NCBI GenBank assembly: GCA_030390025.1
Contig: CM059430.1
Location: 42,966,001-43,030,000 of the forward strand
Direction of reading: 5' to 3'
DNA from: Squalus acanthias
Taxonomy: Eukaryota
DNA: 64,000 bases
The stretch's first letter is position 1; each line of letters starts with the position of its first letter. The position numbers were made by a program, and so were the translations under genes. Positions 7,411-45,259 of this stretch are shown here, one piece after another. The notes beneath the pieces were generated by a model. It had not been told where the DNA came from. It did no database searches and worked only from the letters and a program-made list of their open reading frames with translations.

Positions 7411-8175
7411 GATAGAATCATAGAACGGTTACAGCACGAAAGAAGGCCATTCGGCCTGTCGAGCCTGTGCCAGCTCTCTGCAAAAGCACTTCAGCTAGTC
7501 CCACTCACCCGACCCGCCCTTTCCCCGTAGCCCTGCAAATTTCTTTCCTTCAGATACTTATCCAACTCCCTTTTGAAAGCCATGATTGAATCTGCCTCCA
7601 CCACCCTTTCAGGCTGTGCATTCCAGATCTTAACCACTTGCGGTGTAAAAATGATTTTTCTTACGTCGCCTTTGGTTCTTTTGCCAATCACCTTAAATCT
7701 GCGTCCTCTGGTTCTCGACCCTTCTGCCAATGGGAACAGTTTCCCTCTATCTACTTTGTCCAGACCCTTTGTGATTTTGAACACCTCTATCAAATTTCTT
7801 CTCAATCTCATCTGCTCCAAGGAGAACAAGGAGAGCTTTTCCAGTCTATCAATGTAACTGAAGTTCCTCATTCCTGGAATCATTCTCGTAAATCTTTTCT
7901 GCACCCTCTCTAAGGCCTTCACATCTTTCCTAAAGTGTGATGCCCAGAATTGGACACAGTACTCCAGTTGGGGCTGAATCAGTGTTTTATACAGGTTCAT
8001 CATAATTTCCACACTTTTGTACTCTGTACCTCTATTTATGAAGCCCAGGATCCCGTAAGCCTTTTTAACTGCTTTCTCAACCTGCCCTGCCACCTTCAAC
8101 GATTTGTGCACATATACCCCCAGGTCTCTCTGTTCGTGTACCCCCTTCAGGGTTGTACCATTTAGTTTATATGTC
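7411..8175 (-). mobile_element. CR1 LINE, 5'-truncated (ORF2 C-terminus)
   Basis: ORF 7491..8111 with KAYGILGFI, LEYCVQFW, RTRG..FK, FTPQVVKIWNAQP motifs; ATTCTAT tail. Confidence 0.92.
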
Positions 8176-8309
8176 CTCTCATATCTATTTCAAGTTTGCA
8201 CTCACTAGCAAACTGCCTTTTTCTAATAAATTTTTGCTTTCACTCTTGTCTCTGATCAGGGTATAAAGTTGCTGCTCACTGGTAGTAACACAATCTATGA
8301 TTCTATAAC

Positions 8310-8404: not shown

Positions 8405-8933
8405 AATCATTTGATGTGAAACATAGTAAGAGGCAAATAATCTGGGCCTTGATGCTATTAGATTATTCAGGAAAGGCTGATTTCCTTAAGCTTTTAATAA
8501 TAGAATGGCAACAACAGGTTTACGCCGGTTTCTGTACCGATCTTGTTGATAGGAACTTACGGTGAAATTTCCTACGGGGCTCAGTTTCCTATGCCCTATG
8601 TCCATTGGGAAGGCTATTCCAGCTGCTTAGTTCTTCTGAACGTGTGGGGGGGGGGGGGGTGTAGGAGGGTATGAACAATTGTGGGTGCACTGAGACTGAT
8701 GGCACTTTGGTTAAATGCTGGTTTCAGTAAGAAAATGGAATTCAATCCGGAGAAGTGTGAGGTAATGCATTTGGGGAGGGCTAACAAGGAAAGGGAATAC
8801 ACATTAAATGGTAGGACACTGAGTAGTGTAGAGGAACAAAGGGACCTTGGAGTGCATGTCCACAGATCCCTGAAGGTAGCAGGCCAAGTAGATAAAGTGG
8901 TTAAGAAGGCATACGGAATGCTTGCCTTTATTA

Positions 8934-9935
8934 ACCATCAAACTCACCATGGACTACTCCTCAGAATCGATTTCATTCCTGGACACACGAATCTCCATCA
9001 AAGACGGACACCTCAGCACTTCACTCTACCGCAAGCCCACGGACAACCTCACGATGCTCCACTTCTCCAGCTTCCACCCTAACCACGTTAAAGAAGCCAT
9101 CCCCTATGGACAAGCCCTGCAAATACACAGGATCTGCTCAGACGAGGAGGAACGCGATGGACACCTACGGACGCTGAAAAACGCCCTCGTAAGAACGGGA
9201 TATGACGCTCGACTCATCGATCGACAGTTCCGACGGGCCACAGCGAAAAATCGCATAGACCTCCTCAGAAGGCAAACACGGGACACAACCAACAGGGTAC
9301 CCTACGTCGTCCAGTACTTCCCCGGAGCGGAGAAACTACGCCATGTTCTTCGCAGCCTTCAACATGTCATCGATGACGACGAACACCTCGTTAAGGCCAT
9401 CCCCACGCCTCCACTACTTGCCTTCAAACAGCCGCCTAACCTCAGAAGTACCATCGTTCGCAGCAAATTACCCAGCTTTCAGGATAACAGCGACCACGAC
9501 ACCACACAACCCTGCCACGGCAACCTCTGCAAGACATGCCAGATCATCAACACAGATACCATCATCACACGTGAGGACACTACCCACCAGGTACATGGTA
9601 CATACTCATGTGACTCGGCCAACGTTGTCTACCTCATACGTTGCAGGAAAGAATGCACCGCGGCATGGTACATCGGCGAGACCATGCAGACACTGAGACA
9701 ACGTATGAACGGACACCGCGCAACAATCACCAGGCAGGAGTGTTCCCTCCCAGTCGGGGAACACTTCAGCAGTCAAGGACATTCAGCCTCGGATCTGCGG
9801 GTAAGCGTTCTCCAAGACGGCCTTAGAAACACACGACAACGCAAAATCATCGAGCAGAAACTGATAGCCAAGTTCCGCACTCATGAGGACGGTCTCAACC
9901 GGGATCTTGGGTTTATGTCACGATACATGACGTGA
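8934..9935 (+). pseudogene. Penelope polyprotein C-terminal part: RT end/thumb, Cys linker, GIY-YIG endonuclease
   Basis: ISFLDTRI, LYRKPT, C-x4-CxxC linker, NVVYLIRC..WYIGET..LRQRMNGH..GEHF..E..GLN; uninterrupted frame but lacks the RT catalytic core. Confidence 0.9.
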
Positions 9936-10245
9936 TCCAGACTCGAGTCGTCGTTGGCTTGTTCACAGATGTGATTCCCAGAAAAAAGTAAAAATTTTAA
10001 AGTTTATTGTTTTACATACTGACTGCAGCTTTTGACACGTTAGACCCCCTGTAACTCCACCTCATTGTCTCAGTTGTATCTTGCTATGTCTTTGATGTGG
10101 GACCTTCCTGGCTGACCTGATTGCCTTTTGTCACATCTCGGCAGATAAACAGTCAGGATGATTAAATTTAGTCGTCTACCATTGTAAGGTACACATGCAT
10201 TGTTCTCTATCTATATATGCTTTGGCGATTCTGTATCTCTTTACT

Positions 10246-10283
10246 TCACCCGACGAAGGAGCAACAGCTCCAAAAGCTTGTGA
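10246..10283 (+). ncRNA. Minimal type I hammerhead ribozyme, mutated core (Penelope pLTR)
   Basis: TCAC-CCGACGA-A-GGAGC-AACA-GCTCC-AAAA-GCTT-GTGA; CUGA has become CCGA and GAAA has become AAAA. Confidence 0.75.
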
Positions 10284-10997
10284 TTTCAAATAAAACTGTT
10301 GGACTATAACCTGGTGTTGTGCGACTTCTCATTTTTGTCCACCCCAGTCCAACACCGCCATCTCCGCATTTATTAGCTGTGGCATAGAATACAAGAGCAG
10401 GGGGGTTATGCTTCAACTGTATAAAACACTAGTTAGGCCTCAGCTAGAGTATTGCGTGCAGTTCTGGTCGCCACATTGCAGGAAAGGTGTGATTGCATGA
10501 GAGAGGGTACAGAGGAGATTTACAAGGATGTTGCTGGGAGGAGAGAATCTTAGCTATGAGGAAAGACTGGATAGGCTGGGTCTGTTTTCCTTGGAACAGA
10601 GGAGGCTGAGGGGAGACATTATTGAGGTGTATAAAATTATGAGGGGCATAGATAAAGTGGATAGAAAGGACCTATTTCCCTTAGCAGAGGGGTCAAAAAC
10701 CAGGGGGCACAGATTTAAAGTAATTGGGGGAAGGTTTAGAGGGGATTTGAGGGGAAATTTCTTCACCCAGAGGGTTGTGGGGGTCTGGAACTCACTGCCT
10801 GAAAGGGTGGTAGAGGCAGGAACCCTAACCACATTTAAAAAGTACTTGGATGTGCACTTGGGATGCTCTAACCTGCAGGGCTATGGACCAAGAGCTGGGA
10901 AGTGGGATTAGGCTGGATAGCTCTTCGTTGGCCGGCGCGGACACGATGGGCTGAAATGGCCTCCTTCCGTGCTGTAACTTTCTATGATTCTATGATA

Positions 10998-21085: not shown

Positions 21086-22694
21086 GACATTTTCCACCCC
21101 AAAAAAATGACTCTGTTATGATGTGATTTTTATTCCATTGGTAATTCCCCTCACCGGTGATTAAATGTTATTCCGATTTCTGGACAATGTAAATATATCC
21201 TTAGGGTTCTCTGCACACCTCTAATATAAATAACAAATAAATTCCCTAGTTATAAAAATCAAAGCATCTCTGATTTGGCAAAAATGGAGTTTGCAGACAA
21301 TACACTAAAACCGAAGAGCTGCAGTGTATATTAAATTACTACTTTTATTAAACATTTTATGACACCATTAATTTAAATCTTTAAAATATTAATTTACCCA
21401 GATTTATGATATTACTTTGAAATTGGTGAGCATTGAATGCAGCAAATTTTAACAACAGGGCTGTCAATTTTTTAAATTATAATAATCCCATCTCCATTAA
21501 ATGGATATTTTATGTATCTCAAAGTGTATGCGATTATATTACCAAGAGAAATTATATTAAGCAACGTAAGTTTAATTTTTTTTCTGAAACAAAAATTCCA
21601 TAGCTAATCTATGTTGTAGCAGATCACCTCCAGCCTATTTCGCACAGCATGAATGCATTATGAAAAATGATCTCTGTGGCATCATCTCTGCTTTACTAGA
21701 GCATAACAAAGCCGAGATACAATAAAGACTATCAGGTGTACTTTATTAGTATTCAAAATTCAGTTTATTAAACTTACCCCAAAAGCCCAAGAGAAAACTG
21801 CTTATACATCCCATAACACCGCCAACGTATTTATATTTGTTTATAATATAGATAAAAATATATTTTTAATTTAACCAATAAGTCTTTAGAATTTAGGGTA
21901 ATAAAATATATTTTTTTTTACATGGGGAGATTTAAAATTCATTGGACAGATGTGTTCATGGTTGTCAGAAATGTTCTCCTGTGGATTACACCATGACATA
22001 ATCACTTTCATCAGACATATGTGTTTGAGAATGGCTGCCCAAGACACAGAATCTGTCTCAAATCTAAATATTTTTCAGGTCACTAAATTCGGTGTAATCT
22101 CTTTGGAAATGTTAGAATTCTAATGACACATTAAATAGTTTTGTACTGGTAATTAATTTTAATTTCATGAAAAAAAATTCTTCATATTTATGGACCTTTA
22201 GTATGTTATATGTATTATGACAATGAGGGGATTAAAGGAAGATTTCAATCTTTCTTATTTTTCTAGCCCATAGCGAAAGCTCGCAGACGTGCTGGATGCA
22301 TGTCCCTGTCTGGCTCTTGCAGAGCTGAATTCTCCTGGCATGTTTCATCAATATAGAAATGGTAACTTTCAGAAGCACAATATGTTGCATAGACGCTTCA
22401 GTTCATACTTGTTTACATGTAAAGAAGCTAAAAGATTTGTTTCACCAGAAAACCTCAGTATTTTAAAGTGTTCTTAATTTGCACAATCGACAAACGTGCC
22501 CATAAAACTGTTAATTCATGAAGTCACTCACAGGAATCAAGTTAATCCAGTTTTTTATTTTTGTGATAAATAAACAATTAAAGTCAACCTTTATTTTAAA
22601 TTGCAAGGTTTGATTGTTTAAGTCATTTTTGGTGAGCAGATGTGCCCATTAATTTTTTCCCCAACGATTACATTTTGTGGCTCTATGGGCACTG

Positions 22695-23038
22695 AAAATT
22701 CCTCCACTACCTCACCCTACTGACAAACTTTGTACAAGTGTCAACATTGAGTGTCAGCAGGCTATTCAGCTGTGAAGAGACATCACAGCCAAGGCTAATC
22801 CTCCTCTCACCTGCCATACACAAACGTGCACATTCCAGCAGGAATCAGTTGTTAGCAATCAGGAGTGGGATCTCTGCCTCAGAGACACACAAGAGGATAC
22901 ATGTAGTGCCCCATCAGCAAGCCGGCTGTGGTCAGGTAACTTAGGAAAAGTCAAGGATTTAACTTAGGAACTCCCTGCTTCATATGGTTTAGCCTCATGC
23001 CGTATGGCGCATTTACCAAAAAGCCATCACAGGAAACC
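22695..23038 (-). mobile_element. Old SINE family B copy
   Basis: Reverse-complement match to family B body (GAGTGTCAGCAGGCTATT, CATCACAGCC). Confidence 0.5.
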
Positions 23039-23290
23039 CTTTGCATTTTTAAGCTCATTATCCCCACCACCCCTGATTGTTCCAATTACAGAAGTACAAC
23101 ATTAACTTTGGCTCAACTGTAATTCCCTTGGGGCTCCCCACTGTGGCTCAGTGAGTTTATCCAGTGATTAGCTGAGCAGTGCAGATAAGGAAAGTTCCCA
23201 GCTTCAATTCCCAGTCTGTGCTGATTTAGCAGTTTCAGCAGGGGCGGCTGTAGAGGCACCGTAAATGGCACCAGTGCCCTGTGTTAAAGA

Positions 23291-23519
23291 TGCGGAGATG
23301 CCGGTGTTGGACTGAGGTGGACAAAAATGAGAAGTCGCACAACACCAGGTTATAGTCCAACAGTTTTATTTGAAATCACGAGCTTTCGGAGCGCTGCTCC
23401 TTCGTCAGGTAAAGTGAAGGAATACAAATCAGCAAAGCATATGCTAAAACTTAGCATAAAGCAAAGCATATCAAATAAAACTGTTGGACTATAACCTGGT
23501 GTTGTGCGACTTCTCATTT
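23291..23519 (-). mobile_element. 229-bp Penelope pLTR-only insertion with inverted arm; TSD CTGTGTTAAAGA
   Basis: Reverse-complement match to ~10215-10368; 12-bp direct repeat at 23279-23290 and 23520-23531; 23471-23519 is a perfect inverted copy of 23325-23373. Confidence 0.9.
23376..23412 (-). ncRNA. Minimal type I hammerhead ribozyme with intact core
   Basis: Minus strand UUAC-CUGACGA-A-GGAGC-AGC-GCUCC-GAAA-GC-UC/GUGA: complete core, 5-bp stem II, palindromic AGCU stem III, CUC cleavage triplet. Confidence 0.85.
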
Positions 23520-23587
23520 CTGTGTTAAAGAAGGGAAGACTGGCCACGGTTCTGATCTCTATCCATTGACCTTTCCTGGAAGTGCAT

Positions 23588-23759
23588 GGGGGTAATTTTC
23601 ACTTTGGGCGCAAGCGGAAAACTGGCAGTTGGGGGGGATCAGCCTCCCGTTATGCACCCCGCCCGATTTTCCTTTCCATTGAAGTCAATTAAGGGATTAA
23701 TGGGTGGTCGATCCGCAACCACCAGTTTTCCACCCATGCCCACAGTGAAAATCGGCCCC
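23588..23759. mobile_element. Short palindromic MITE
   Basis: GGGGGTAATTTTCACT / AGTGAAAATCGGCCCC termini plus subterminal GGAAAACTGG / CCAGTTTTCC. Confidence 0.7.
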
Positions 23760-25589
23760 TTGGTGAGGATAAGTTCAAGCTCAACCGTGATGCCCACCAT
23801 AGTCAAATATCCTCCTGACACTCACTGTCAGGGCTCAGAAACAAATAATGGCTACTTGAATGAGATGGAACCGTACCTCAGCAAGGAGTCAACACCTTCA
23901 GGGGAGAAAGGAAAGGGAGAACATTGCTAATAAAATAAAACAAATCTGTAATATATTCAAACATTGTTTTTGTTTGATTTCAATAAATAGTCAAATTTTG
24001 AATTTAAAAAAATTCTCAATTTAAGATCAGTAAGATATTCCCGACCTATTCCTGTTATTCATGAACATGCAGAAAACAGTGAGTGCTATTCGCTCAGTTC
24101 AATATGAAGGACGTTACAGCATCCATTATAGAACATTCATTAGTGTAGAGATTCACATTGAATTCATTCTTATTGATTGCAAACGCTTCATATCAAATGG
24201 ACTTAGATTTGCTTTTAGAATTATTTTATGTTCCAGTATATATCTAAAAGTTTTAGCCCTGTAAATAGACATTTCAGTTATCCCTGGAGCTATACAACAC
24301 AGCTGCTCAGTTTCCTTAAGATATCAGAAATTACTGAAATTTCTAGGTGGAAATGGTTAAGGATGAACAAAAAATTCAGGTTTGAATTTTCTGTTTAGGA
24401 ACATGAGCCTTGAAATTGCTGTAAACAATATTATCTTAACAAGTTCACAGCAAATTCCTCTCCCGGTTATTCTACCAGAGGCTTAAACTCATTTATTTTA
24501 AACAGGTTAATGTCTCTGTAAAAAACTGAGAAAGGAATTTGATACAAATGTGTTAAGCGTTCCTACAATGAAATTGCTCACAGTAATTTCCAGGCTGACA
24601 TCCTTTGATGTGCACTATTTACTTTTTTTACTCTTCGAGGAGAGCAATGAAAGTGGTGGAATGGAACGTTTTTCCTCTTCCTATGCAGCGTCACTATTAC
24701 ATACTCCTAGGTGTGGAATAGCAAAGGTCAGCTGCTTCCCCAACAATTGCAGACAATGTGCCTGAACACTTCAAAGGAGCAGCCCTTGTGTGTACTGTAC
24801 TTTATCCTGTCAATGAGAATGCCAGATCATGGCCTTTTTTTTTGCTGTAGACTCGTGGCCACTAGCAACTGGGTAGATGCTGCCCAAACTCATTTCACTT
24901 GAGACCCCTGATAGCGATACGAGAGAAAAGAAAGAAATCAAAAAAAAAACCTCTCATTGAATCTATCTGGACTCGATTTGAACCCAATCCCAGAAGTGAA
25001 CATGGGAGTTACTTTGAACTTTATTGCCGTTTTTGTTACACCAGGAGTTTTCTTTATAGGTCTATTGTTCTCTGGAATTTTGGCCTGCAAATGAAAAAGT
25101 TCCTGATGAGAGTACCCACTTAGAATTTGTTCAAATCTGTCAACATTTTTCCAGAGAGTACAAACAGTGCTCTTAAAAAGAACCCCTCTACCTCCTGTAA
25201 AAGAGTACAAGAAATAGTTGGCAACTTTGTGAATACCACACTGTGTGCTCAAATCTCACTCGAGATAATCTCCAACTGTTCTCTGAGCAACAATTATGCT
25301 TACAGCTAGTGGGAGAAGTCAAATGGGATGATGAGGATCTGGAACAAGAATGCCATACGGTTTTCAACACTTCTAGCTTTTCATGTAGCTGTGCATCAGC
25401 TCAAACACCCTCCTCCCACATCATACTGTTTGTATTTGAAAAATATCGCCGATCTTCGATCAGTCCTTTAAATACTTTTACCTCTGTCATTCTTTCTTTC
25501 ATTGCCGCCTTCACATTGTTTGGCTTTTCTTTACTGTTAAGATATTTAGAATCTGAGGAAAGACACTCTCAGTAAGTGCAATGAATGGT

Positions 25590-26504
25590 ATGACACAAAA
25601 CTTGGAAGTATAGTGAATAGTGAGGAGCAGAGTGATAGACTTCAGGAAGACATAGACAGGCTGGTGAAATGGGCAGACACGTGGCAGATGAAATTTAACG
25701 TGGAAAAGTGTGAAACGATGCATTTTGGTAGAAAGAATGAGGAGAGGAAATATAAACTAAAGGGTACAATCCTAAAGGGGGTGCACGAACAGAGAGACCT
25801 GGGGGTATGTGTGCACAAATCGTTGAAGATGGCAGGGCAGGTTGAGAAAGCAGTTAAAAAAGCTTACGGGGTCCTGGGCTTCATAAATAGAGGTATAGAG
25901 TACAAAAGTGTGGAAATTATGATGAACCTGTATAAAACACTGGTTTGGCCCCAACTGGAGTACTGTGTCCAATTCTGGGCACCGCACTTTAGGAAGGATG
26001 TGAAGGCCTTAGAGAGGGTGCAGAAAAGATTTATGAGAATGATTCCAGGAATGAGGGACTTCAGTTACATTGATAGACTGGAGAAGCTGGGGTTGTTCTC
26101 CTTGGAGCCGAGAAGATTGAGAGGAGATTTGATAGAGGTGTTCAAAATCATGAGGTGTCTGGACAGGGTAGATAGAGAAAAACTGTTCCCATTGGCAGAA
26201 GGGTCGAGAACCAGAGGACACAGATTTAAGGTGATTGGCAAAAGAACCAAAGGTGACGTAAGAAAACACTTTTTTACGCAGCGAGCGGTTAGGATCTGGA
26301 ATGCACTGCCTGAAAGGGTGGTGGAGACAGACTCAATTTTATCTTTCAAAAGGGAGTTGGATAAGTATCTGAAGGAAAAAAATTGCAGGGCTGCGGGAAA
26401 AGGGCAGGGGAGTGGGACTAGCTGAGAGTTGGCACGGGCTCGACGGGCCAAATGGCTTTCTTCCGTGCTGTAACCATTCTATGATTCTATAAATTCTATG
26501 ATTC
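25590..26504 (+). mobile_element. CR1 LINE, 5'-truncated, open ORF2 C-terminus (270 aa)
   Basis: LQEDIDRLVKWADTWQMKFN..KCE, RDLGV, LEYCVQFW, FFTQR..WNALP; (ATTCTATG)n tail; same subfamily as 7411-8175. Confidence 0.93.
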
Positions 26505-26728: not shown

Positions 26729-26903
26729 ATGGTGTAATACTGAGCCACATGGACCAAGAAAGTCCCGGACTCAATTCCAAAGGTAGGTGGGAGAATTCCA
26801 ATTGGCCCTGATTATTCTCCAGTGGAAAGCACTTGTGTGTAGACATTGGGTGAGGCTGGAATCTGGCTTGACTGCAATAGTGGTGAAGTGGTCAGCTTTC
26901 ACT

Positions 26904-27048
26904 GGCCAGGAATTTCCTTGGAGCTGCTCCTGCTGTAACTTCGCTGGAAGTGCGACAGAATGTTTGCAGGTGTAAACGAGGTTATCCGTTGCACTCCCAA
27001 TGAAGTTACCACAGCAGAGCAGGAGTAGCTCCGAGGAAATTCCTGGCC
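26904..27048. mobile_element. 145-bp hairpin MITE, TSD ACT, inside a family B SINE copy (~26730-27150)
   Basis: GGCCAGGAATTTCCTTGGAGCTGCTCCTGCT vs AGCAGGAGTAGCTCCGAGGAAATTCCTGGCC; ACT at 26901-26903 and 27049-27051. Confidence 0.88.
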
Positions 27049-28650
27049 ACTATTTTTTTCAGGCTCACACATGATGATTGGCCACTAGGAGTCAGGAATC
27101 ACCATCTTTCAAGAAAGAAAAGAAAAAGAAAATTAGGAATAGAAAATTGGAAGTTAAATGTGACTCTAAATATTGTAACATGGAAATTATTTTAGCAAAG
27201 GAGAACCCTGCCTATGGTTTACAAACATAAACCAAAATCAGACACTTAGCAAAGTAATTCTCCCTCAAAGAGGAAAGCTGAGTCTTAGCTATTCACTCTT
27301 CCTTAGCCTACACTACAAATGAGTTCTCCTTACTGTGCCAAAGTTTGTATGTACTGTGAAGACTAATAGATTGGTCTTGGTTTGTTTACGAGTAGACTTA
27401 ACTACATTTTGGACTGCGGCAGGTATCCCTATTCCTATTTACAATCAAGTAGAGAGCATTACAGAAATCATTCACTAAAACAAAGTATGAAGAAACTCAT
27501 ACACTTCCCTTGGGCTAATAAAAAAACAGAAGCTCCTTATGTCCAAAGCATTTTGGTGCTTCACTTCTGCTTAATCTCTATTTTCTATCAGTTTCAACAA
27601 CCCCTTGTGTTGTTGTAACCTCTCGCCAACCCTAATTTCAAACTGCATTTACATTGGATTAGTGATTTCTACAGGTTGTCTGCATAGAATATCTTATTGA
27701 GCAGTCCCTGACTGCAGCATAAAACGAGACAGATGATTCGAAAACCAGCCCGTCGAAAAGGATTTGGCCTAATTTAGCCTTCTGTTGCTCTTAGTTGATT
27801 AGAAGAAGAAGATGGTGTGATCAACATTGTTGAAATTCAGCATCTTTCCCCTGTATGTCATTTAATTAGGAAGTGCTTGTCACTGCTCTGGCTGTAAGCT
27901 GCAAATACTCCCGTGCTTGTTTGCTTGCTTGCTTTTGTTAAGCACCTGAGACGCCAGAAAATATTCCCCAAAAAAGCAGCGGACATTTTTGCTATTTTAT
28001 GGGTGCATGTGAAGAGTGTAATACAAGGCAAATAGCGGCAGATACATATGTTACGAGCTCTTTGGCGTTGGCCGCACGTCACTCAGCTCCTGTGACCTAA
28101 TGTTCCTGTGATGATGAAGCGTGACTGAGCTTGGGGTATGGGAGGGTGGGAGGCACCTCCTAGTTAGCATGAAAGTACTGCGGAGGCTCCAAAGCCCCAG
28201 CCAGTGTCACACACCACCGTAATCTGTTTCACATCTGCGTCTAGCAGCAGAAAGGGAGAGAGGTGAAGTGGATCAAACTGCAGGAGGGGGGCAGCGGTAA
28301 GGGAGCTGAAGAGATTTTCTCCACTCTGCATAAGACCACCTGTCCAACCTTGACAGATTGCTACATGGGGAGCCATACTAGATTAAATCAAATGCATGGG
28401 ATATTCTTTGTCAAAATACAGTGCATTCCTATTAAGTCTGTAACTGATTTTCCGCAATGTTTTTACAGTTAGCAGCAAGCTCTTAAAAAGAGTCCATAAA
28501 AACTATGTTGTAGCATAATGCAAATGTATATGTGGAAAATGCATGTACAACTGACTTTATTTTCCCAGTGAAGGACCGTTGTTTGATATTTGCACTAGCT
28601 AGACGGTAGCAGACAGATAAAGGGATATAGAATGTAAGGTAACGCACTTA

Positions 28651-28885
28651 AAAATAAAAAACTGAAAATACTGGAAATAGACAGCAGGTCAGTCAGCATC
28701 TATAAAGAGAAAAGACACAGTTATGGCATTTTGGACGCACACCCTTCATCAGACTGAAGGCTGACGAAGGGTACAGTGTTGAAGTCTCATAACCTGCCTT
28801 ATCGATTTTCAGTCACTGACTGATCTGCTGTGTATTTCCAGCATTTTCTCCTTTAATTTCAGATTTTCAGAATTTGGATTTTTCC
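28651..28885. mobile_element. Inverted (palindromic) pLTR pair of a second Penelope family with two decayed hammerhead cores
   Basis: GAAAATACTGGAAATAGACAGCAGGTCAGTCAG mirrors CTGACTGATCTGCTGTGTATTTCCAGCATTTTC; centre ACCCTTCATCAG..CTGACGAAGGGT. Confidence 0.7.
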
Positions 28886-32545: not shown

Positions 32546-33683
32546 CATAGAAACATAGAAACATAGAAGATAGGAGCAGGAGTAGGCCATTCGGCCCCTT
32601 GAGCCTGCTCCGCCATTCGATGAGATCATGGCTGATCATCCAAACTCAGTACCCTGTACCTGCCTTCTCCCCATATTCCTTGATACCTTTAGCTTTAAGA
32701 AATATATCTAACTCATTCTTGAATATATTTAATGACTTGGCCTCAACTACCTTCTGTGGTAGAGAATTCCACAGGTTCACCACTCTCTGGGTGAAGAAAT
32801 TCTTCCTCATTTCTGTCCTAAATGGCTTACCCCTTATCCTTAGATTATGACCCCTGGTTCTGGACTCTCCGACCATCGGGAACATTCTTCCTGCATCTAG
32901 TTTGTCCAGACCTGTCAGAATTTTATACGTTTCAATGAGATCCCCTCTCATTCTTCTATACTCCAGCGAGTATAAGCCCAATCGACCCAATCTCTCCTCA
33001 TATGTCATTCCTGCCATCCCAGGTATCAGCCTTGTGAATCTTCGCTGAACTCCTTCCATGGCAAGAACATCCTTCCTCAGATAAAGCGACCAAAACTGCA
33101 CACAGTACTCAAGGTGTAGTCTCACCAAGGCCCTGTACAACTGCAGCAGGACATCCCTGTTCCTATACTCAAACCCTTTCGCTATGAAGGCCAACATACC
33201 ATTTGCCTTCTTAACTGCCTGCTGCACCTGCATGCGTACCTTCAGCGACCGGTGCACAAGGACACCCAGGTCTCGTTGCACTTCCCCTTCTCCCAATCTA
33301 TTGCCATTCAGATAATAGTCTGCCTTTCTGTTTTTGACACCAAAGTGGATAACCTCGCATTTATCCACGTTATATTGCATCTGCCACGCTTCTGCCCACT
33401 CACCCAACCTGTCCAAATCATCCTGGAGTTTCTCGGTATCCTCCTCGCAGCACACACGCCCACCCAGCTTTGTGTCATCTGCAAACTTGGAGATATTACA
33501 TTTAGTTCCCTTATCCAGATCATTAATGTATATTGTGAATAGCTGGGGTCCAAGGACCGATCCCTGCGGTACCCCACTAGTCACTGCCTGCCACTCGGAA
33601 AAAGACCCATTAATTCCTACACTCTGCTTTCTGTCCGCCAACCAGTTCTCTATCCAAGTCAATACCTTGCCCCCAATCTCATG
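32546..33683 (-). mobile_element. CR1 LINE with open RT C-terminal half
   Basis: WIENWLADRKQ, GVPQGSVLGPQLF, KFADDTKL, LEYCVQFW; (TTTCTATG)n tail; no stops over ~345 codons. Confidence 0.95.
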
Positions 33684-34188
33684 ACCCTGTGCATATGCCA
33701 CAACCACTGCAACATTGGTTGGCTCTGAGGCACTCAGTAAAACCATACCTTGGAATCGCCTGCTACCAAAAAGGTAAGTTTTTCAAATTTACGTACCTGA
33801 AGGTAGAGCCGGGAGGAGCAGGAGCTGCACCCCCCTTCCTCCCGATCACCACTATCTGCACACCCCCCGCGCCGATCACTCCTGCTCCATCTGACCCAGC
33901 CTCCAATTCCTCTCACTGGCCTCCTATCTCCCAACCCCCACTTACCTGAGGGCCGCTGCGATGCCCGATCTTAGTATATTCTTAACTGGCTTACTGTGCG
34001 CCATGATGGCTCCAACTCAGATGTTGATGCCACTGAGAAACCATCTAACAACAGAGAAAGGCTATGGGCTGCAAGCCTATTCCATATCTGCCATCTCTAC
34101 CTGCAAGGACAGTGTCCGATACAGCTTTAGCACAATGAAAGAGTATGTGCAAAAGAGCAATGTGTTGTGTACTGTACTTGAAATGATA

Positions 34189-34295
34189 CATAAGAACATA
34201 AGAACATAAGAAATAGGAGCAGGAGTAGGCCAATCGGCCCTTCGAGCCTGCTCCGCCATTCAATAAGATCATGGCTGATCTGATCCTCACCTCAA
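34189..34295 (-). mobile_element. CR1 3' tail only
   Basis: (CATAAGAA)3 followed by ATAGGAGCAGGAGTAGGCC..CCTGCTCCGCCATTC. Confidence 0.8.
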
Positions 34296-35616
34296 ATCTA
34301 AAGAACACAAGAAGTAGGAGCAGGACCTGGCCACATACATCCCAGAGGGTGTGGGAGTTCCTACTGTAACTTTGCGTCAAAGCTTTGTGAACTCTACAAG
34401 AAACATGAATAAAAGTATGGAGCACACTTCTTCCTCATTTGCAACAGTTGCAAGGGGCATGGGTGACGGCAGTGATTTAATTGGCACCCTTCCTCCAAGC
34501 AGCCTACAGCTGTGCTTTAACTGGAGGGTGGTCTTCAGCTCCAAGTAAGGTCACTCTCATTTGGGGTACCACTTTGCAGTCGAATCTCCTTCTGATGCAG
34601 GCAGCAAGCCAACTTCGTGCTGCCTGCTCATTAGCATGATTGCAGCATGCAGCCATGCTAAACACACTGTTGAGTGGCTGCATGCCTCAGTGGGGGGGGG
34701 CCCACAATTGTGAGATGCTAGCACCACTTAGCCTGCACTACTTAAAGCCAGTCTGCACCTTTTAAAGGAGGTGCATTGTGGCTGGAGTAGGTGGTGGAAG
34801 CTGTTGTGGAACTTATTCTGATGTAGAAAAGGACGGAATAATTGCACAACATAGGAGAGGGTGGACTCCAAGATTTTCTGACGCTGCACTGGAGGCCTTG
34901 GTGGAGGAGGTGGAGAGGAGGAGAGATGTGCTCTATCCACAGGCGGCCCTTCAGACAAACGCTCAGAAGGCAGTGGGACCAGATAGATGTGGCAGTCAAT
35001 GCCAGGATTCAAGCCCTGAGGACCTGGATGCAGTGCCGCAAGAAGTTCAATGACCTCACATGAGTGGTCAAGCTCAGTAAATGTATCTTCAAATGCCATA
35101 TCCTACCAACTGCACCACCTCAACCATTGCTCAATGCACACAACCCCATCACTCACCTACCAACAATCTCTATTAAACAGGACTCATATTTAACATCTAT
35201 AGTTGCACCTCACCCTCACACACTTTGCACTGCTGCAAGCCTCAAACTCACATCTCTCAGCTTGCACACACTGCCAGCTATTCAACCGTGACAGCCACAC
35301 CACACAAACAGATTGCACAACACTCACTGACACACTTCCCTCTCTGTTGCAGGACAAGGTGGCGCACAACCGGAGACAGCAGTCACTGGGGGCAAGGGTT
35401 ACTCAGATGCCAGCTCGCCAGAGGGTGAGGTCACACATGAGTTCTACTGCGGAAGACTCAGTTGAGCACTTTAATGGGGCGGCTGAAGAAGAAGGCCTGC
35501 CAGAAAGTCTGCGTGCAATGTCAAGGAGCATGGATGAGTCTGGTACCAACTTTGCACAGGGCTTTGTGCAGAGCCCATCCTTTCCAGTATGGAAGTGGTG
35601 GCCAACTCCATTAGCA

Positions 35617-36620
35617 CATAGAGTCATATAGAGTCATTTGGGGCGCGACTTTTAGCGCCCCGAAAAAATTAGCGGCCCCGCGCCGGAACTTCAGTGGTTG
35701 CGCCCCAAGAGGGAAGCGGGGCGCAACTGGAAGCAGCCCGCATCCCTCTTGGGGCGCTGCGAGTGAATATCCTGGCGCTACGTGCCGCAGCGCCATGCGC
35801 TGCGGCACGTCGCGCCGCGGTATTGCAGGCCTTCCTCCCCTTCTTAAAGGGGAGGGACCCTGCGCAGCGCGAACCGGGGCCCAGCTGGGCCCCCAGGGAT
35901 CGGGAGTGCCGGCAAAAGAGCCCGGCACTCAAGAGAAGTGCCGGGCTCTTGGAGCGCAGCCGGCACTTCACGGTGGGGGGGCTTCACGGGGGCCAGGGGC
36001 AGGTGCTGGCAGGCGGCCAGCAACAAAAATGGCCGCCTGCCACCTCCGCTTTAAATATCGCCGCCCCGGCCGCACGTACGCCTCCCTGAACCCGTCGGAC
36101 ATAGCGTCTGGCGGTAAATCAGGGGGCGCGACTGAAGATCACGGCCGGGGCGCGAGCGGGGTGCTGCGCACGGCGATGACGTCATCGCCGGCGGCGCAGC
36201 GCCACAGGGCGCTACCGGCTGCCGCCACCGCTAACCTCCCACTAAATTTTTCGGGAGGCGTGGGCGGCGCTGCGCCCGGGCGTTAGCTGCTTTACGCCCC
36301 ATTAGCGCCCTCTTAAGGCGCTAACGGGAGGCGCAAGCAGCTGAATTTTTCCCCCATAGAGTTATACAGCACAGAAAGAGGCCCTTCAGCCCATCGTGTC
36401 CGTGCCAGCCATCAAGCCCTGTCTATTCTAATCCCATTTTCCAGCACTTGGTCCGTAGCCTTGTATGCTACGGCGTTTCAAGTGCTCATCTAAATGCTTC
36501 TTGAATGTTGTGAGGGTTCCTGCCTCTACCACCCTTTCAGGCAGTGAGTTCCAGATTCCAACCACCCTCTGGGTGAAAAAGTTTTTTCCTCAAATCCCCT
36601 CTGAACCTCCTGCCCCACAC
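35617..36620 (-). mobile_element. CR1 3' fragment inserted in the Myb gene; its tail is split by a GC-rich MITE
   Basis: CATAGAGT repeats on both sides of the MITE; FFTQRVVGIWNSLPERVVEAG motif near 36500-36590. Confidence 0.85.
35640..36355. mobile_element. Very GC/CpG-rich non-autonomous element (young MITE-like)
   Basis: GGGGCGCGACTTTTAGC start, GCTGAATTTTTCCCCC end, repeated TAGCGCCC/GGCGCTA motifs; abrupt composition change. Confidence 0.75.
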
Positions 36621-37386
36621 TTGTGGACTCAACCATGATGCGTGTCTGATGGCCGATGTCTCGGTTTCCACTGCAGCACAAGCAGAAGCCACCCAACCTC
36701 TGAGTGCTGCAGTGGAAGATTAGATTTCTATCATGCAAGGTCAGCTTGCTGCCATCATGGCTGCGGATACCAGTGTCAAAGGGGCTTGCAGGGTGACACA
36801 GCGGTCCAGCAATCTGTCCTCCAACAGATTACTAGGATTGCTGAGGCACCGTCCTGGGAGAGTGGGAATGGCAGTGGCTCCGTGGAGCACGAACCTGCTG
36901 TCCGCATCACTCTCTCAGGGTGACAGCATTCGTCCTCCCAGCCCTGCCACTCTGCCAGTGCCCTTGCTGTTGCCTGTCAGCCAGCCAACCCAGACTGCTG
37001 CCGCCCATGCTGAGATGGTGCAGTCCGAAGCTGGGCCTTCTAGGCCTAGAGCTGCTCGAGGTCGTCCTCCAAGCCCATCTGCAGTCTCCCCTACTGAATG
37101 TCAGCAGTCTTCCACCAGCCATGCTGCAGCCTCTGGGGTAGCACTGCGTAGGAACTCAGGCAAAGGCACACAGAATACAGGCACTAAGGGAATTCACAAG
37201 GGTAATTGGGTGATTAATTGATGTTCGTATGCAATATGGCATGCTTTGATTTAAGAATTTGGTTTGGAATGTTTATTTTCTGTTGGCTTTTATTTTTGCA
37301 TTGTGGCCAAGCGGATGCTGTGATGATCAGTAACAAAGGGAAGGGAAGCTGTGGGACTGTTGGTGAATGGAGAATTGGGGTTGCGT

Positions 37387-38522
37387 TTACTGGCATCGCA
37401 ATGGGATGGGTTGTTCACGGACAACTCGGCCAGAAAGTGGCAGTCTAGGTTGCCTCCTCCCTTCCTCTTCCTCCGCCTCCTCCTCCTGCTCCTCGCCCTC
37501 CTCAGCTGCTCACTGTATAGCTGGTGGCTAGGGCTGTGCCCTCATGATGGCGAGGTTGTGCAGCATGCAGCAGACCACCACGAATCTTGACACCCGCTCT
37601 GCTGAGTACTGCAGGGCTCCTCCAGAGTTGTCCAGGCAGCGGAAGCATTGTTTCAACTCGCCAATTGTGTGCTCTATGACATTTTGTGTGGCAGCATGGC
37701 TTTCGTTGTATGCATGCTGCCCATGTGTGTGTGGGTTGCGCACCGGAGTCATGAGCCATGTCGTCAGTGGATAGCCACCCTCTGGTTTGTCGTCGTGGCT
37801 CAAATGCAGATGGCGCAGCGGACTGCCACAATATGAAGACATCATGACTACTGCCAGGATACCGGGCATTGACCTGCATGATTCATTGCCTATGGTTGCA
37901 CACCAGCTGGACGTTGAGGGAGTGGAATCCCTTTCAGCTGCGGTACATGTCAGAATTGACATGCGGCGCCCGCAAAGCGACGCATGTTCAGTCAATGGCA
38001 CCCTGCACCATGGGGAAGCCTGCAATCATCGCGAAGCCGTGTGCTCGCTCCGCCTGCTGCTCTCTGGCAAGAGAGAATGAAATGTAATCAGCTCTCATTT
38101 GAATACAGAGCCTCAGTGACCTCCCTTACTCAACAGTGGACAGCAAACTGGGAGATGTTGCAAATATCTCCAGCTCCAGCCTGGAAGGAGCCCGACGCAT
38201 AAAAGTTCATTGCCACGGTCACCTTCACAGCCACTGGTAATACAGTCCTCGCCCTGCTCTGAGGTTGCAGTTGTGGCTGCAGCAGGTGGCAAATTTCAGT
38301 GAGAACATCCTTACTGAAGCACAGATGTCTGACACATTGTTCCTCGCTGAGGTTCAGGTCGGAGAATTGCTCCCTTAACACCCTGGGCGGATATGGCCTC
38401 CTACTGAGAACTCGTCTCCCCCTCCTCCTCCCTCATCTAGCAGATTGCCCTGCTTTGTGTCGCCTCTGTTCATTCTCTAAGTCATGCTGTATTCCAAGGG
38501 GAATTCCTACTAGTGCACCCAT
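37387..38522 (-). pseudogene. Harbinger (HARBI1-family) DDE transposase pseudogene
   Basis: LSEEQCVR..LPVAVKVTVAMNFYASGSFQ..ISQ; GFPMVQGAID, KGFHSLNVQLVC, ARYPGSSHD, GYPLTTWLMTP, YNESH..VIEHTIGELKQCFRCLD, CCMLHNLA; several stops and frameshifts. Confidence 0.92.
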
Positions 38523-41472: not shown

Positions 41473-44400
41473 TGTAAATATGGGGGCCTATGTCTCTTTA
41501 ATATTAGAGTGACAACATTGAACTTGAATAACTTTCCTTACTTTAGAATTAGAAACAAGAGCTTTCAATGGCTTTTTTCCCCCATTTAAAAATGTTGCCG
41601 AAGTTTAATTTTGCCCTTTGCCCTCAATCCCTTGCTCCTCTTTCTAACTAAGGCTGTAAGATTGAGACTTTAGGTTGAAGAATCCAGGTACATTTGATAT
41701 GAATTCAAAACATGCAGACATTCGCATTCATTGCTGTAAAACTGTCTGAAGTACAATTTGATGCCATTTCTGGTGAAAAAAACTTAGTAGTGACAAATCT
41801 CGTGCTGTTTTGACAAGATTCTCATTTCACGTGACTTTTTTTCCCCTTTGTCTTTCAATCATTGCAAAGAAATGTCAGTTTGAACTGTTAAAAGCAGGCA
41901 GCAAATTAAGAAAGCATTGCACAGCACTGCTGTAGAATGATTGCTGTGCACAGAGGTGGTGTACAAATGCCTCATACAGTTGCAACATTATTTTCCACAA
42001 TCTTGCTCTGAGCCTGCAGCTGGCCAGAATGACCTCCAACGCGCTTCCTAAACTTTAACATATCAAGTAGAGGAGAAAATATGTCTCCTTAGTTCACATG
42101 GTGAGGCGAGATTCTGTACTACAATGATAAATAATGTGCAAAGATGAGAAAGTACAGACCTGTTGATTCTTTGCCTTCTGCTTGTCAGATGTGTGGCACG
42201 GAGAGTATAGTATTCATCCTGCTAAATTTGTAGAACTGAAAAATATGTTGGCATGGCAGGAACTTATGGCAGCAGACCTGATGATTTTGCCAAACATATT
42301 GCATGCCTGGCAGTCATCTGCAATCTTAGCTCACTGGGGCCTGTTCATAGGAAAGATGACATGTACTAACACGTAGCTTACATGAACCCATTTCTAGGTG
42401 TCACTCAGCCGGTGTTGTTTTTCACTTCCTTCCCATATAACCTTCAAAGGCTGTCTTTTAACGTACATTTATTAAAACTTTTTATCATTGGTCAATTGAC
42501 TGCTAGAGTGACTCCTCAAAACCTTCATGAAATGATTGCCTACTTGCCGAAAAAATATTGAGGCTTCGAGAGAAGCCTTGCTTTGTCAGGAGGAAGAAAA
42601 TAAAGAGAAATCGGCTGAGCATCAAAGGGCACATTTCCATAATTGCCCTGTAACTTTGGAAAAATAAATCTGAAGGGCTGAGAAAAGCACAGTCTCTCAG
42701 ATGAGTGCACTACAAAAGCCAAAGAGGTCCCCAGTCCCACTTGTTACTATTCCAATTCAGTGAGAGAATCCCGCTCCCTACCCTCCGCAACAAAAGCCAC
42801 AAAATCACTGTCCTGTTCTCTTAAAGGAGCTCGGCCTGAAGAATAGAATCTTATCCATCCTTTGTCTCAGTCTCAGCACCAACTACTCCTGGAAAGTTGT
42901 ACTGCAGGTCTTCTGTGCTCAGAATTGCTGGATATCCCTTCTTTTGACACTGACATTTTTGTTCACAACAAGACGAGCTTTTGTGGTGATATTCAGAAAG
43001 AACAATCAAGAGAGCCTAATAAACGGATTAGTAGGGCAGACAAAGAGCTGCGGTGGCTTCAAAGCTAGACCAACAACACAATAGAGATGACATTTGTTCA
43101 TCTTGGGGCTCAGGCAAGCACTGGGTGAATGTGCTGTCCGTGATGATGCCAGTAAACAATGGGTGAAGTTGGAAAGAGGGTGAAAAACACCAGACATCAG
43201 TCTTTGTTTCTCTGAGCATGGATAAGGCATTTGCAGCTAAGTATTGGAAATGCACTGTTTTATTTACTTTTGAATTTTCTCTTATTTGAATTATTGCTGA
43301 TGGCTTCTTCTTCTTTTAAGCCTTGTGAGAAGATAAACATACAGTTCATCACACAATATGAAGAATATATCTTTCAACTTAGTTGTGCTATCATTGCTTC
43401 TCTCTATAAGAAAACAGACGGATGCTGTTTAACATTATTTTCCACTTCGGCGTGCCTTGCAGAACTATAGCAAAAAGCAATAAAAGCGCAAAGTGGATTG
43501 AGTGACAATGGAACCTGAGCTGTAGCTTTTGGATTCAGGCTTTGCTTCATTGCTTCTCAATCTTATTCTCCAGTGTCTCAGCAAAGGGATTGCATCACAG
43601 TATTTAACATTGCTAGAAGCAAAGGAATAAAGTCAAGCCAGTGTTGATTATTGCTCATTAGCCACAAGGACATACTTTTGTGTGTGAATAAATGAATGAC
43701 ACCGTGTCCTGATGGAAATAGTCCTAGTGTAGCTCTAAGCAAAATGTCAGCTAACGTTTCCATTTGCTTATTATTAGAGAATCCTGTTGGATGCAAATGG
43801 GAATATAAGCATCCACGATTATTTTATTCCTTATAGACAATGTTTAACAAACCTGCTTAATTTCTTCTGTGATGCTATAACAAAGACATTTAGTGAACAT
43901 TTTTATTAAAATTGATGTTGGCTGGATTTAGCATTTTTGAAATCTTGACATGATATCCTATGAAATAGGATTGAAGTAAATCGGGTTCTGTGCTTTTTCA
44001 TCTAATAATGGTTGAAGTGCAAAGACGATCCCAATTGTAGCTGCAACTTTTGTCTCGTTTATATGCCATTGCAATTATAGATGTTTAAATAAAATGGAGA
44101 TGATTCTTGTTTTTAAAAGCCATGTGTGAAGCCTATTCATGAGCATATCTAAAACATGTCTTAGTTGAAACATGCTACCTGAAAGTCAGAGTGTCCACGA
44201 CTAAGAATCTGAATAGAAAATGTGACAATCAGCTGATAGTAACTCCGATGTCTGTACAGAAAGCAATATAAAACCTTTTAGTGGAGCCAGCATTGTCTGG
44301 ATCCTGCCATCAACACCTGTACCTGTATTGATACCTAATACAACACATTATCAGACTTATACCTATAAACCATTCCTATACCTAGAACCGAAACCAAACT

Positions 44401-45259
44401 TACATTCATACTCAAACTGTAGCCATAACAACCAAGTACTTAGTTTTCCCATTCATACATATCTCCATTTTATTCAAACATCTATAATTGCAATGGCATA
44501 TAATATTAGATTTAAATATATGTAAATTTAATTTAAACAAATTCTTGATATTTTTAAACTAGCCCATAATGTGTATTATATCGCTTATCAAATATTGCAG
44601 TATTTCCTGAAAATAATGCATTGCTGTTTTAAACATTCAGAAATCAGAATGCATGTTATTACTTTCCTAAATGTATGCACTTCAGAAATGACATACTGAT
44701 TGCAGTTTTGTACCTGAAACGTCACTTCATATTTCTGTTCAGGCTACCTAGTCACCTGTCCAATCAACTCACCCTGTTTAGCAAAAATAAATGTGTGGAA
44801 AAACTTCCTGCGTATGCTATTCAAAAAAACTGAAAGAACACTGGTCGAGAGTTCAAGAACAAAATCACATGGGGTCCCCAACAATTATGTATGAGTAGTA
44901 AATGTACATTTACATGGCCTATCCCTGCCTACAGACCACATTTACTTGTGAAAAAGATGTTTGCAAAAAAAACACTAGTCTCACACTATTATATCACATC
45001 ATACACAATGCGGACCAAATGGTCGTGCTTTATATAGCTCAATGACTACTATGTATTGTGAATAAAATTGAGTAAAATGAAGCGTTAATCACTAACTATT
45101 TGCCTTCATGGAGCTTCCTCAGATTTATTTTTGATGGAAGCAGATATTTGAATGGACCAGTTTAGTGAACAAGAACAAGTATTGTGTTGTCGTTTTCCTA
45201 TAAACTGAGAAATTACTGTCTACCGTTTTACAAGCCAGTGTATACATTTGATGGTTAAC

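Follow-up and report, generated by a model that had tools for sequence, protein, structure and literature searches.

The insert of 229 bases at positions 23291-23519 of the window (the whole 64,000-nucleotide stretch of Squalus acanthias DNA analysed here; coordinates were checked on its letters) is best explained as the recent, 5'-truncated pLTR end of a high-copy Penelope-like element (PLE) together with an inverted piece of the pLTR, formed when both strands of the target were primed and the cDNA ends were joined. We assign this reading a probability of roughly 0.6. We have high confidence that what was inserted is a truncated PLE and does not constitute a separate family.

The insertion and its empty site

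The two edges of the insert carry the same 12-mer (12/12 identical), of which eight bases are A or T. One copy lies at 23279-23290, the 3' (tail) end of the element, and the other at 23520-23531, neither having a strand; these are the only two occurrences in the whole 64-kb window. With 441 offsets allowed, the chance of such a flush 12-nt pair is about 3.5e-5. Contigs from four of the 24 listed sequencing runs were compared with the window, namely X1 and X5 (organism A), X7 (organism B) and X8 (organism C). In organism B a contig (X7 record 17) runs straight from position 23278 to 23520, and so does a contig of organism C (X8 record 24). Both contigs have at least 100 letters on either side of the join, and their flanks are about 94-98% like the window. 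The 241 nt absent from the empty site correspond to the 229 nt of the insert plus one copy of the 12-mer. Because the empty site holds a single copy, the target-site duplication (TSD) is proven, beyond inference, and the 12-bp duplication that the initial annotation had placed around 23291-23519 is borne out. In run X1, 63 family contigs align from 23289, and therefore the last one or two nucleotides of the copy at 23279-23290 may belong to the end of the element too.

Bridging contigs were counted only if they had at least 31 letters inside the insert. Left-flank contigs of organism A enter it by 25 nt (X1 record 1) and 21 nt (X5 record 9), both below this bar, and there is a hint that another individual of organism A also carries the insert, X1 possibly being the source sample. 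The arms of the inverted repeat are identical, as are the two TSD copies, and CpG is not depleted, its observed/expected ratio being 0.92 for the insert arm but 0.46 for the window. Since the site is moreover empty in both other organisms (2/2), this is a real and young insertion. It is a presence/absence marker that distinguishes organism A from B and C.

The insert was originally described as devoid of coding sequence. In substance this is right, but two ATG-started frames of about 55 codons do exist, one on each strand; they arise from the inverted repeat and are taken as incidental.

Anatomy of the insert

Positions 23471-23519 are the exact reverse complement of 23325-23373 (49/49), with no exact extension on either side, and 97 nt separate the two 49-nt arms, precisely as first annotated. 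This is the longest of 13 inverted repeats in the window with arms of at least 25 nt lying within 400 nt. Inclusion of junction bases lengthens the alignment of the arms to 56 nt, at 96%. The minus strand of the insert is predicted to fold at -106.3 kcal/mol, and none of 200 shuffles was equally stable (z = -12.3).

The key diagnostic feature had been left out of the earlier description. Outside the stem, and at one end only, there are 34 nt (23291-23324, minus strand) that match the end of a related PLE copy at 10215-10369 and represent the 'tail' of a PLE. Read on the minus strand, which is the sense of the element, the order is: TSD; the inverted 49-nt piece of pLTR (23471-23519, plus strand), whose outer end lies at the pLTR/tail border; 28 nt of filler; 118 nt of pLTR, which include the hammerhead; the 34-nt tail; and TSD.

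Origin from a Penelope-like element

The first 152 nt of the insert are the 3' end of a PLE. Positions 23290-23442 show 91% identity (141/155 columns) to 10215-10369, the end of an element at 8934-10368, so the proposed link to Penelope-like elements stands. The stretch 23325-23442 (minus strand) is the 3' part of the pLTR, 5'-truncated at 23442; its portion 23325-23373 is one of the repeat arms.

The PLE family of the insert is present in great abundance. In all four runs the contig depth summed over 23342-23375 was in the millions, compared with 12-31 on the unique flank, although depth is not the same as copy number. Near the tail border, loose ends with long and diverse flanks were seen in X8 (organism C) in 232 contigs at 23330 and 162 at 23514, counts that rest on 24 of 1567 rows; at the inner border, the loose ends of organism C partly reflect subfamily differences a few bases from the border. 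Other loose ends, at 23410-23423 (X1, X7 and X8), come from further subfamilies with the same hammerhead and tail that differ just upstream of helix I, and several pLTR types therefore have a common 3' module. A search for an exact 24-nt pLTR pattern gave no match in metagenome_contigs, genome_contigs or viral_contigs, which are microbial and viral collections and have no bearing on the family.

The related copy at 8934-10368 (plus strand) is itself 5'-truncated. It has its own 7-bp TSD (8927-8933 / 10369-10375) and carries no inverted piece. It consists of a 333-aa ORF remnant (8934-9935) with a GIY-YIG-type end, located upstream of the pLTR end, followed by pLTR and tail. The ORF starts mid-protein, and its Atlas features match at 0.96 to clusters with HTH_animal and GIY-YIG; it contains a YIGET motif, which we take to be a GIY-YIG-type mark. 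No Pfam family was assigned to it at E 0.001, the one match (E 0.041) falling below the cut-off, and a scan of this window copy detected neither a [YF]xDD motif nor an RT core. Its hammerhead is changed at two core positions, U4 and G12. Because of the mid-protein start, the lack of [YF]xDD, the two hammerhead changes and an identity of only 91%, this copy is a dead relative and not the donor or mobiliser of the insert. The suggestion that the GIY-YIG Penelope at 8934 mobilised the insert thus has to be given up, and we infer that the enzyme came from some intact relative located elsewhere.

The hammerhead motif

A descriptor scan followed by numbering identified a minimal type I hammerhead motif on the minus strand (23376-23412) with the marks of the minimal hammerheads of PLEs (PMC4209133; this and the other papers are cited for the accessible parts of their texts). 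It is the only descriptor match on either strand of the 64 kb. Helix I (23412-23409 / 23379-23376) has 4 bp including one G-U pair; the core from C3 to A9 spans 23408-23402 and is followed by an extra A at 23401; helix II (23400-23396 / 23392-23388) has 5 bp; G12 to A15.1 lie at 23387-23384, U16.1 at 23381 and C17 at 23380. From this numbering, the cut site is predicted between 23380 and 23379. The initial annotation called the hammerhead intact. This holds for the catalytic nucleotides, as all core positions are present, but not for the fold: helix III is absent, with just a palindromic 4-mer (AGCU) in its place, and the window has no match at gathering score to any hammerhead model of Rfam. 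Within 22500-24500 a search up to E 10 produced eight Rfam matches, all below gathering score and none of them a hammerhead. A microRNA reading of Rfam matches was also tried and rejected, these being generic hairpin matches of which the best scored 55 bits against a gathering score of 249.

The motif thus displays the features of minimal metazoan PLE hammerheads: the core, helices I and II, the extra base, the G10.1-C11.1 pair and the palindromic positions 15.2-16.2. With the PLE motifs of PMC4209133 it has in common the short helix I, the extra base between positions 9 and 10.1, the G10.1-C11.1 pair, the palindrome at 15.2-16.2 and the missing helix III; those motifs, too, are mostly single ones from truncated PLEs. 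Helix II is 7-8 bp long in the Schistosoma motifs (PMC4209133) compared with 5 bp here and, unlike the published examples, the insert contains a local 7-bp hairpin that is predicted to compete with the core. We found no account of Penelope hammerhead ribozymes of sharks in the literature searched.

For the whole insert, helix II is predicted with a probability of 0.08-0.10 and helix I with 0.01-0.02. Forcing both helices would cost only 2.0 kcal/mol, and the isolated motif is predicted to fold both. When two copies of the motif were cofolded the helix II strands were swapped and no helix III appeared, energy models being blind to the tertiary folding of hammerheads. At position 17 the insert has C, whereas U makes up most of the depth summed over the family in X1 (2.62 of 4.31 million); one pair of its helix I is G-U, whereas G-C predominates in the family depth (1.39 of 1.81 million). 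A single minimal motif did not cleave in the study of PMC4209133, and dimers cleaved little; the motif of the anole element cleaved only with protein and was dispensable for insertion in vitro (PMC11167929). By itself, with neither helix III nor a partner copy, the motif of the insert is predicted to remain uncut.

The junction

The 28 nt at 23443-23470 (no strand assigned) are not family sequence, because family contigs (20 in X1 and 14 in X5) run past 23442 with letters unlike the insert, and the copy at 10215 leaves the reference at the same position. The filler is a patchwork drawn from the neighbouring sequence on both sides: 5-mers found no more than 25 nt from either end cover 25 of its 28 nt, a coverage that was reached by 101 of 20000 shuffles. 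A 12-nt direct duplication, in which 23460-23471 copies 23431-23442, lies exactly where it had been reported. The small hairpin reported with it is real as well, but is 8 bp long (23440-23447 / 23451-23458, with a 3-nt loop) and not 6; a 10-bp palindrome is also located at the junction. Patchwork templated insertions have been described for microhomology-mediated end joining (MMEJ), where polymerase theta usually inserts less than 25 bp (PMC12426944), slightly below the size of this filler. The filler looks like an end-joining scar, but the RT of the element itself could also make such a patchwork.

Of 197 rows of joints in the family, the 15 shown all connect the tail-side and inverted arms head to head, with 15 different break-point pairs; the remaining 182 rows include other kinds of joint. 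This indicates that head-to-head junctions are varied in the family. The ratio of the depth of the junction bin (23444-23477) to that of the next bin was 0.028 and 0.029 in organism A compared with 0.047 in B and 0.065 in C, a blunt test, as matches to the arm dominate the bin. The higher ratios belong to B and C, the organisms that lack the insert locus.

Comparison with known systems

PLE insertions are known in which an inverted, 5'-truncated copy adjoins the 5' end and a tail of 30-40 bp is often confined to one end (Craig et al. 2021, PMC8557442). The same inverted layout was described for rotifer PLEs, whose TSDs measure 8-10 bp and whose tail is 31 bp long (Arkhipova et al. 2013, PMC3846280), and published tails measure 30-40 bp (PMC8557442, PMC3846280, PMC11167929). 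Like the endonuclease-positive insertions of these studies (PMC3846280, PMC8557442), the insert has an inverted piece at its 5' end, a one-sided tail and a TSD. The marks of theirs that it displays are identity to the pLTR end of an element with a GIY-YIG-type ORF, an inverted 5'-truncated copy, a one-sided tail in the range of 30-40 bp and a TSD made by the insertion. The tail is 34 nt long, compared with 31 bp in rotifer Pen2a, and the TSD 12 nt compared with 8-10 in rotifer PLEs (PMC3846280). Palindromic features at the inverted junction are common to the insert and to complex PLE insertions (PMC3846280). Unlike the latter, as far as their accessible descriptions go, the insert retains a direct copy of only 152 nt with no ORF left, and has a 28-nt filler made of several pieces. 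The Poseidon element PAc of Anolis carolinensis (Frangieh et al. 2024, PMC11167929) resembles the insert in the location of the hammerhead near the tail, in the two insertion ends that bound the tail and in the AT-rich target; host and sequence are different, and the accessible text on PAc does not treat inverted copies.

Non-LTR retrozymes consist of units repeated in tandem, head to tail, each with its own hammerhead, and they give rise to circular RNA (PMC7229834; bioRxiv 10.64898/2026.07.22.740005). Those of animals (Cervera and De la Pena 2020, PMC7229834; Li et al. 2026, bioRxiv 10.64898/2026.07.22.740005) are like the insert small and non-coding, with a type I hammerhead, a relationship to pLTRs and a TSD of more than 4 bp. 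In contrast to tandem retrozymes, however, the insert is a single head-to-head unit with one minimal motif. Tandem units with two or more complete hammerheads were absent, the single motif in the 64 kb being in a head-to-head setting, and in place of the helix III of a canonical type I hammerhead (PMC7229834) there is only a 4-nt palindrome. The insert should not be filed as a retrozyme.

Formation of the insert

The layout of the insert could have arisen as follows. The enzyme of an intact family member would nick the two strands 12 nt apart, which would give rise to the TSD. One 3' end would prime at an outer start site, the end of the tail, and be extended by 152 nt through the hammerhead; the other would prime at an inner start site, the tail border 34 nt further in, and be extended by 49 nt. 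Two cDNAs of the same sense on opposite strands would read as an inverted repeat with a one-sided tail. Rounds of short templated synthesis would then join the cDNA ends and leave the 28-nt filler. Priming of 12-nt staggered ends at the outer and inner sites would thus produce the anatomy of the insert, with the middle needing end joining, and the hammerhead would be a passenger from the pLTR. The PLE protein of the anole cuts and extends both strands in vitro and uses two start sites whose interval is the tail (PMC11167929), sites measured in a lizard element and not in the family of the insert. Among the rows shown, loose family ends with diverse flanks are located at both borders, 23289 (63 contigs, X1) on the one hand and 23330 and 23514 (232 and 162 contigs, X8) on the other, in favour of this route. 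In the target next to the inverted arm, three of four bases match the template beyond the tail border, as in the twin priming of L1 (PMC11702581).

A related process is the twin priming of L1, the original description of which is reportedly that of Ostertag and Kazazian in 2001. Like the route proposed here, it involves priming by both target ends, a discrete TSD, microhomology at the second end and end joining in the middle (PMC11702581). The difference is that in L1 the second primer lands beside the stop of the first cDNA and the pieces barely overlap (PMC11702581), whereas in the insert both pieces copy one stretch and make up an inverted repeat. A search by title and start of abstract, with subscription literature mostly outside its scope, found no study of the PLE mechanism that deals with twin priming and inversion.

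Alternatively, the inverted arm of the same truncated PLE insertion may come from fold-back or self-priming, in which the first cDNA, or else an antisense template, turned back on itself; we consider this route possible but tentative. A stutter would then make the filler, and copying would proceed up to the tail border, to be resolved there by the endonuclease or by end joining. Self-priming has indeed been proposed for the palindromic inverted junctions of PLEs (PMC3846280), and the tail has been ascribed to resolution by the endonuclease (PMC8557442). The 10-bp palindrome and the 8-bp hairpin of the junction, and arms that continue to 56 nt at 96% into the junction bases, fit this route, which also requires identical arms, as seen. 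However, an extra reason is needed for a stop exactly at the tail border, for which two-end priming has a measured second start site, and the 12-nt direct duplication is more simply understood as one cDNA end copying the other. One locus cannot tell the two routes apart, as identical arms and junction microhomology are expected under both.

It might also be supposed that the 229 nt are a non-autonomous hairpin mini-element that is itself transcribed and then re-inserted as a unit by the PLE enzyme, and the initial annotation had offered a retrozyme-like family as one of two options. Such a ribozyme-bearing PLE derivative with a fixed junction, spreading as single head-to-head inserts and in this respect unlike tandem retrozymes, we regard as quite unlikely. 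The unit has indeed lost neither the tail nor either of its borders, its catalytic nucleotides are in place, and putative non-autonomous PLE derivatives have been reported (PMC8557442; bioRxiv 10.64898/2026.07.22.740005). It has, however, one hammerhead, minimal and not canonical, and no tandem repeat; helices II and I are predicted in the whole insert at the low probabilities given above, and the transcript is predicted to lock the 49 nt beside the tail in a duplex. Nor does the blunt junction-bin test reveal an excess in organism A. The varied joints of the family and a junction that resembles a repair scar also count against a family, and support instead the other option of the annotation, a one-off product. 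It is very unlikely, in our view, that a longer PLE insertion with inverted ends later lost its middle by a deletion whose repair left a templated insert. Longer copies with inverted pLTRs at their flanks do exist and form hairpin-prone DNA (PMC3846280), and repair of a later break would also leave templated filler (PMC12426944), but no longer allele was seen among the longest X1 and X5 pieces shown, none of which spans the insert, and heavy 5' truncation is normal for PLEs (PMC8557442). A MITE or a microRNA-type hairpin unrelated to retrotransposition is hardly credible: the very stable hairpin (z = -12.3) and the weak Rfam matches to plant microRNA models would suit it, but the repeats do not lie at the termini, since one side has 34 nt more, and the identity of the sequence to a PLE end contradicts it.

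The surrounding window

The flanks of the insert at 23138-23239 and 23580-23900 are moderately repeated, with summed depths of hundreds to thousands and up to about 40000 at 23648-23681. The left flank (23138-23239) may be an old SINE, which it resembles, and inverted arms at 74% are located at 23585-23762. Self-BLAST revealed related LINE 3' fragments at 7491-8189, 8733-8933 + 10369-10993, 25550-26490 and 32646-33782. The second of these is the fragment that is split by the PLE copy at 8934, and 32649-33782 matches RVT_1 (E 7.7e-14). A 445-nt unit at 44059-44503 with 43-nt terminal inverted repeats (98% complementary) and AT-rich flanking bases is a candidate non-autonomous DNA transposon. 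A DDE_Tnp_4 fragment (37528-38025, minus strand, E 9.8e-16), situated in a GC-rich region of about 34000-38000 with several short palindromes, is likely the remnant of a Harbinger-type transposon. Shorter inverted-repeat units at 26903-27049 (32 nt, 94%) and 28664-28848 (54 nt, 78%) are possibly small MITE-like inserts. An exon-sized open frame at 59680-60804 (minus strand) encodes a TALE-class homeodomain (Pfam Homeobox_KN, E 2e-18) with PKNOX1, TGIF and Meis as best PDB matches. From its appearance we take it to be part of an Iroquois (Irx3-like) gene; the insert is located about 36 kb downstream of it.

Significance of the insert

The insert shows, in a very short version, a layout already known for PLEs, and it is likely a one-off product, not a new ribozyme element. 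As a locus it matters little, since it merely adds a further short insertion to those of a highly abundant family. It is nevertheless a clean specimen: its empty site is proven, its arms are untouched and its junction can be read. The papers cited leave open, in their accessible parts, whether the inverted copies of PLEs stem from two-end priming or from fold-back, and thousands of such inserts could decide between the two.
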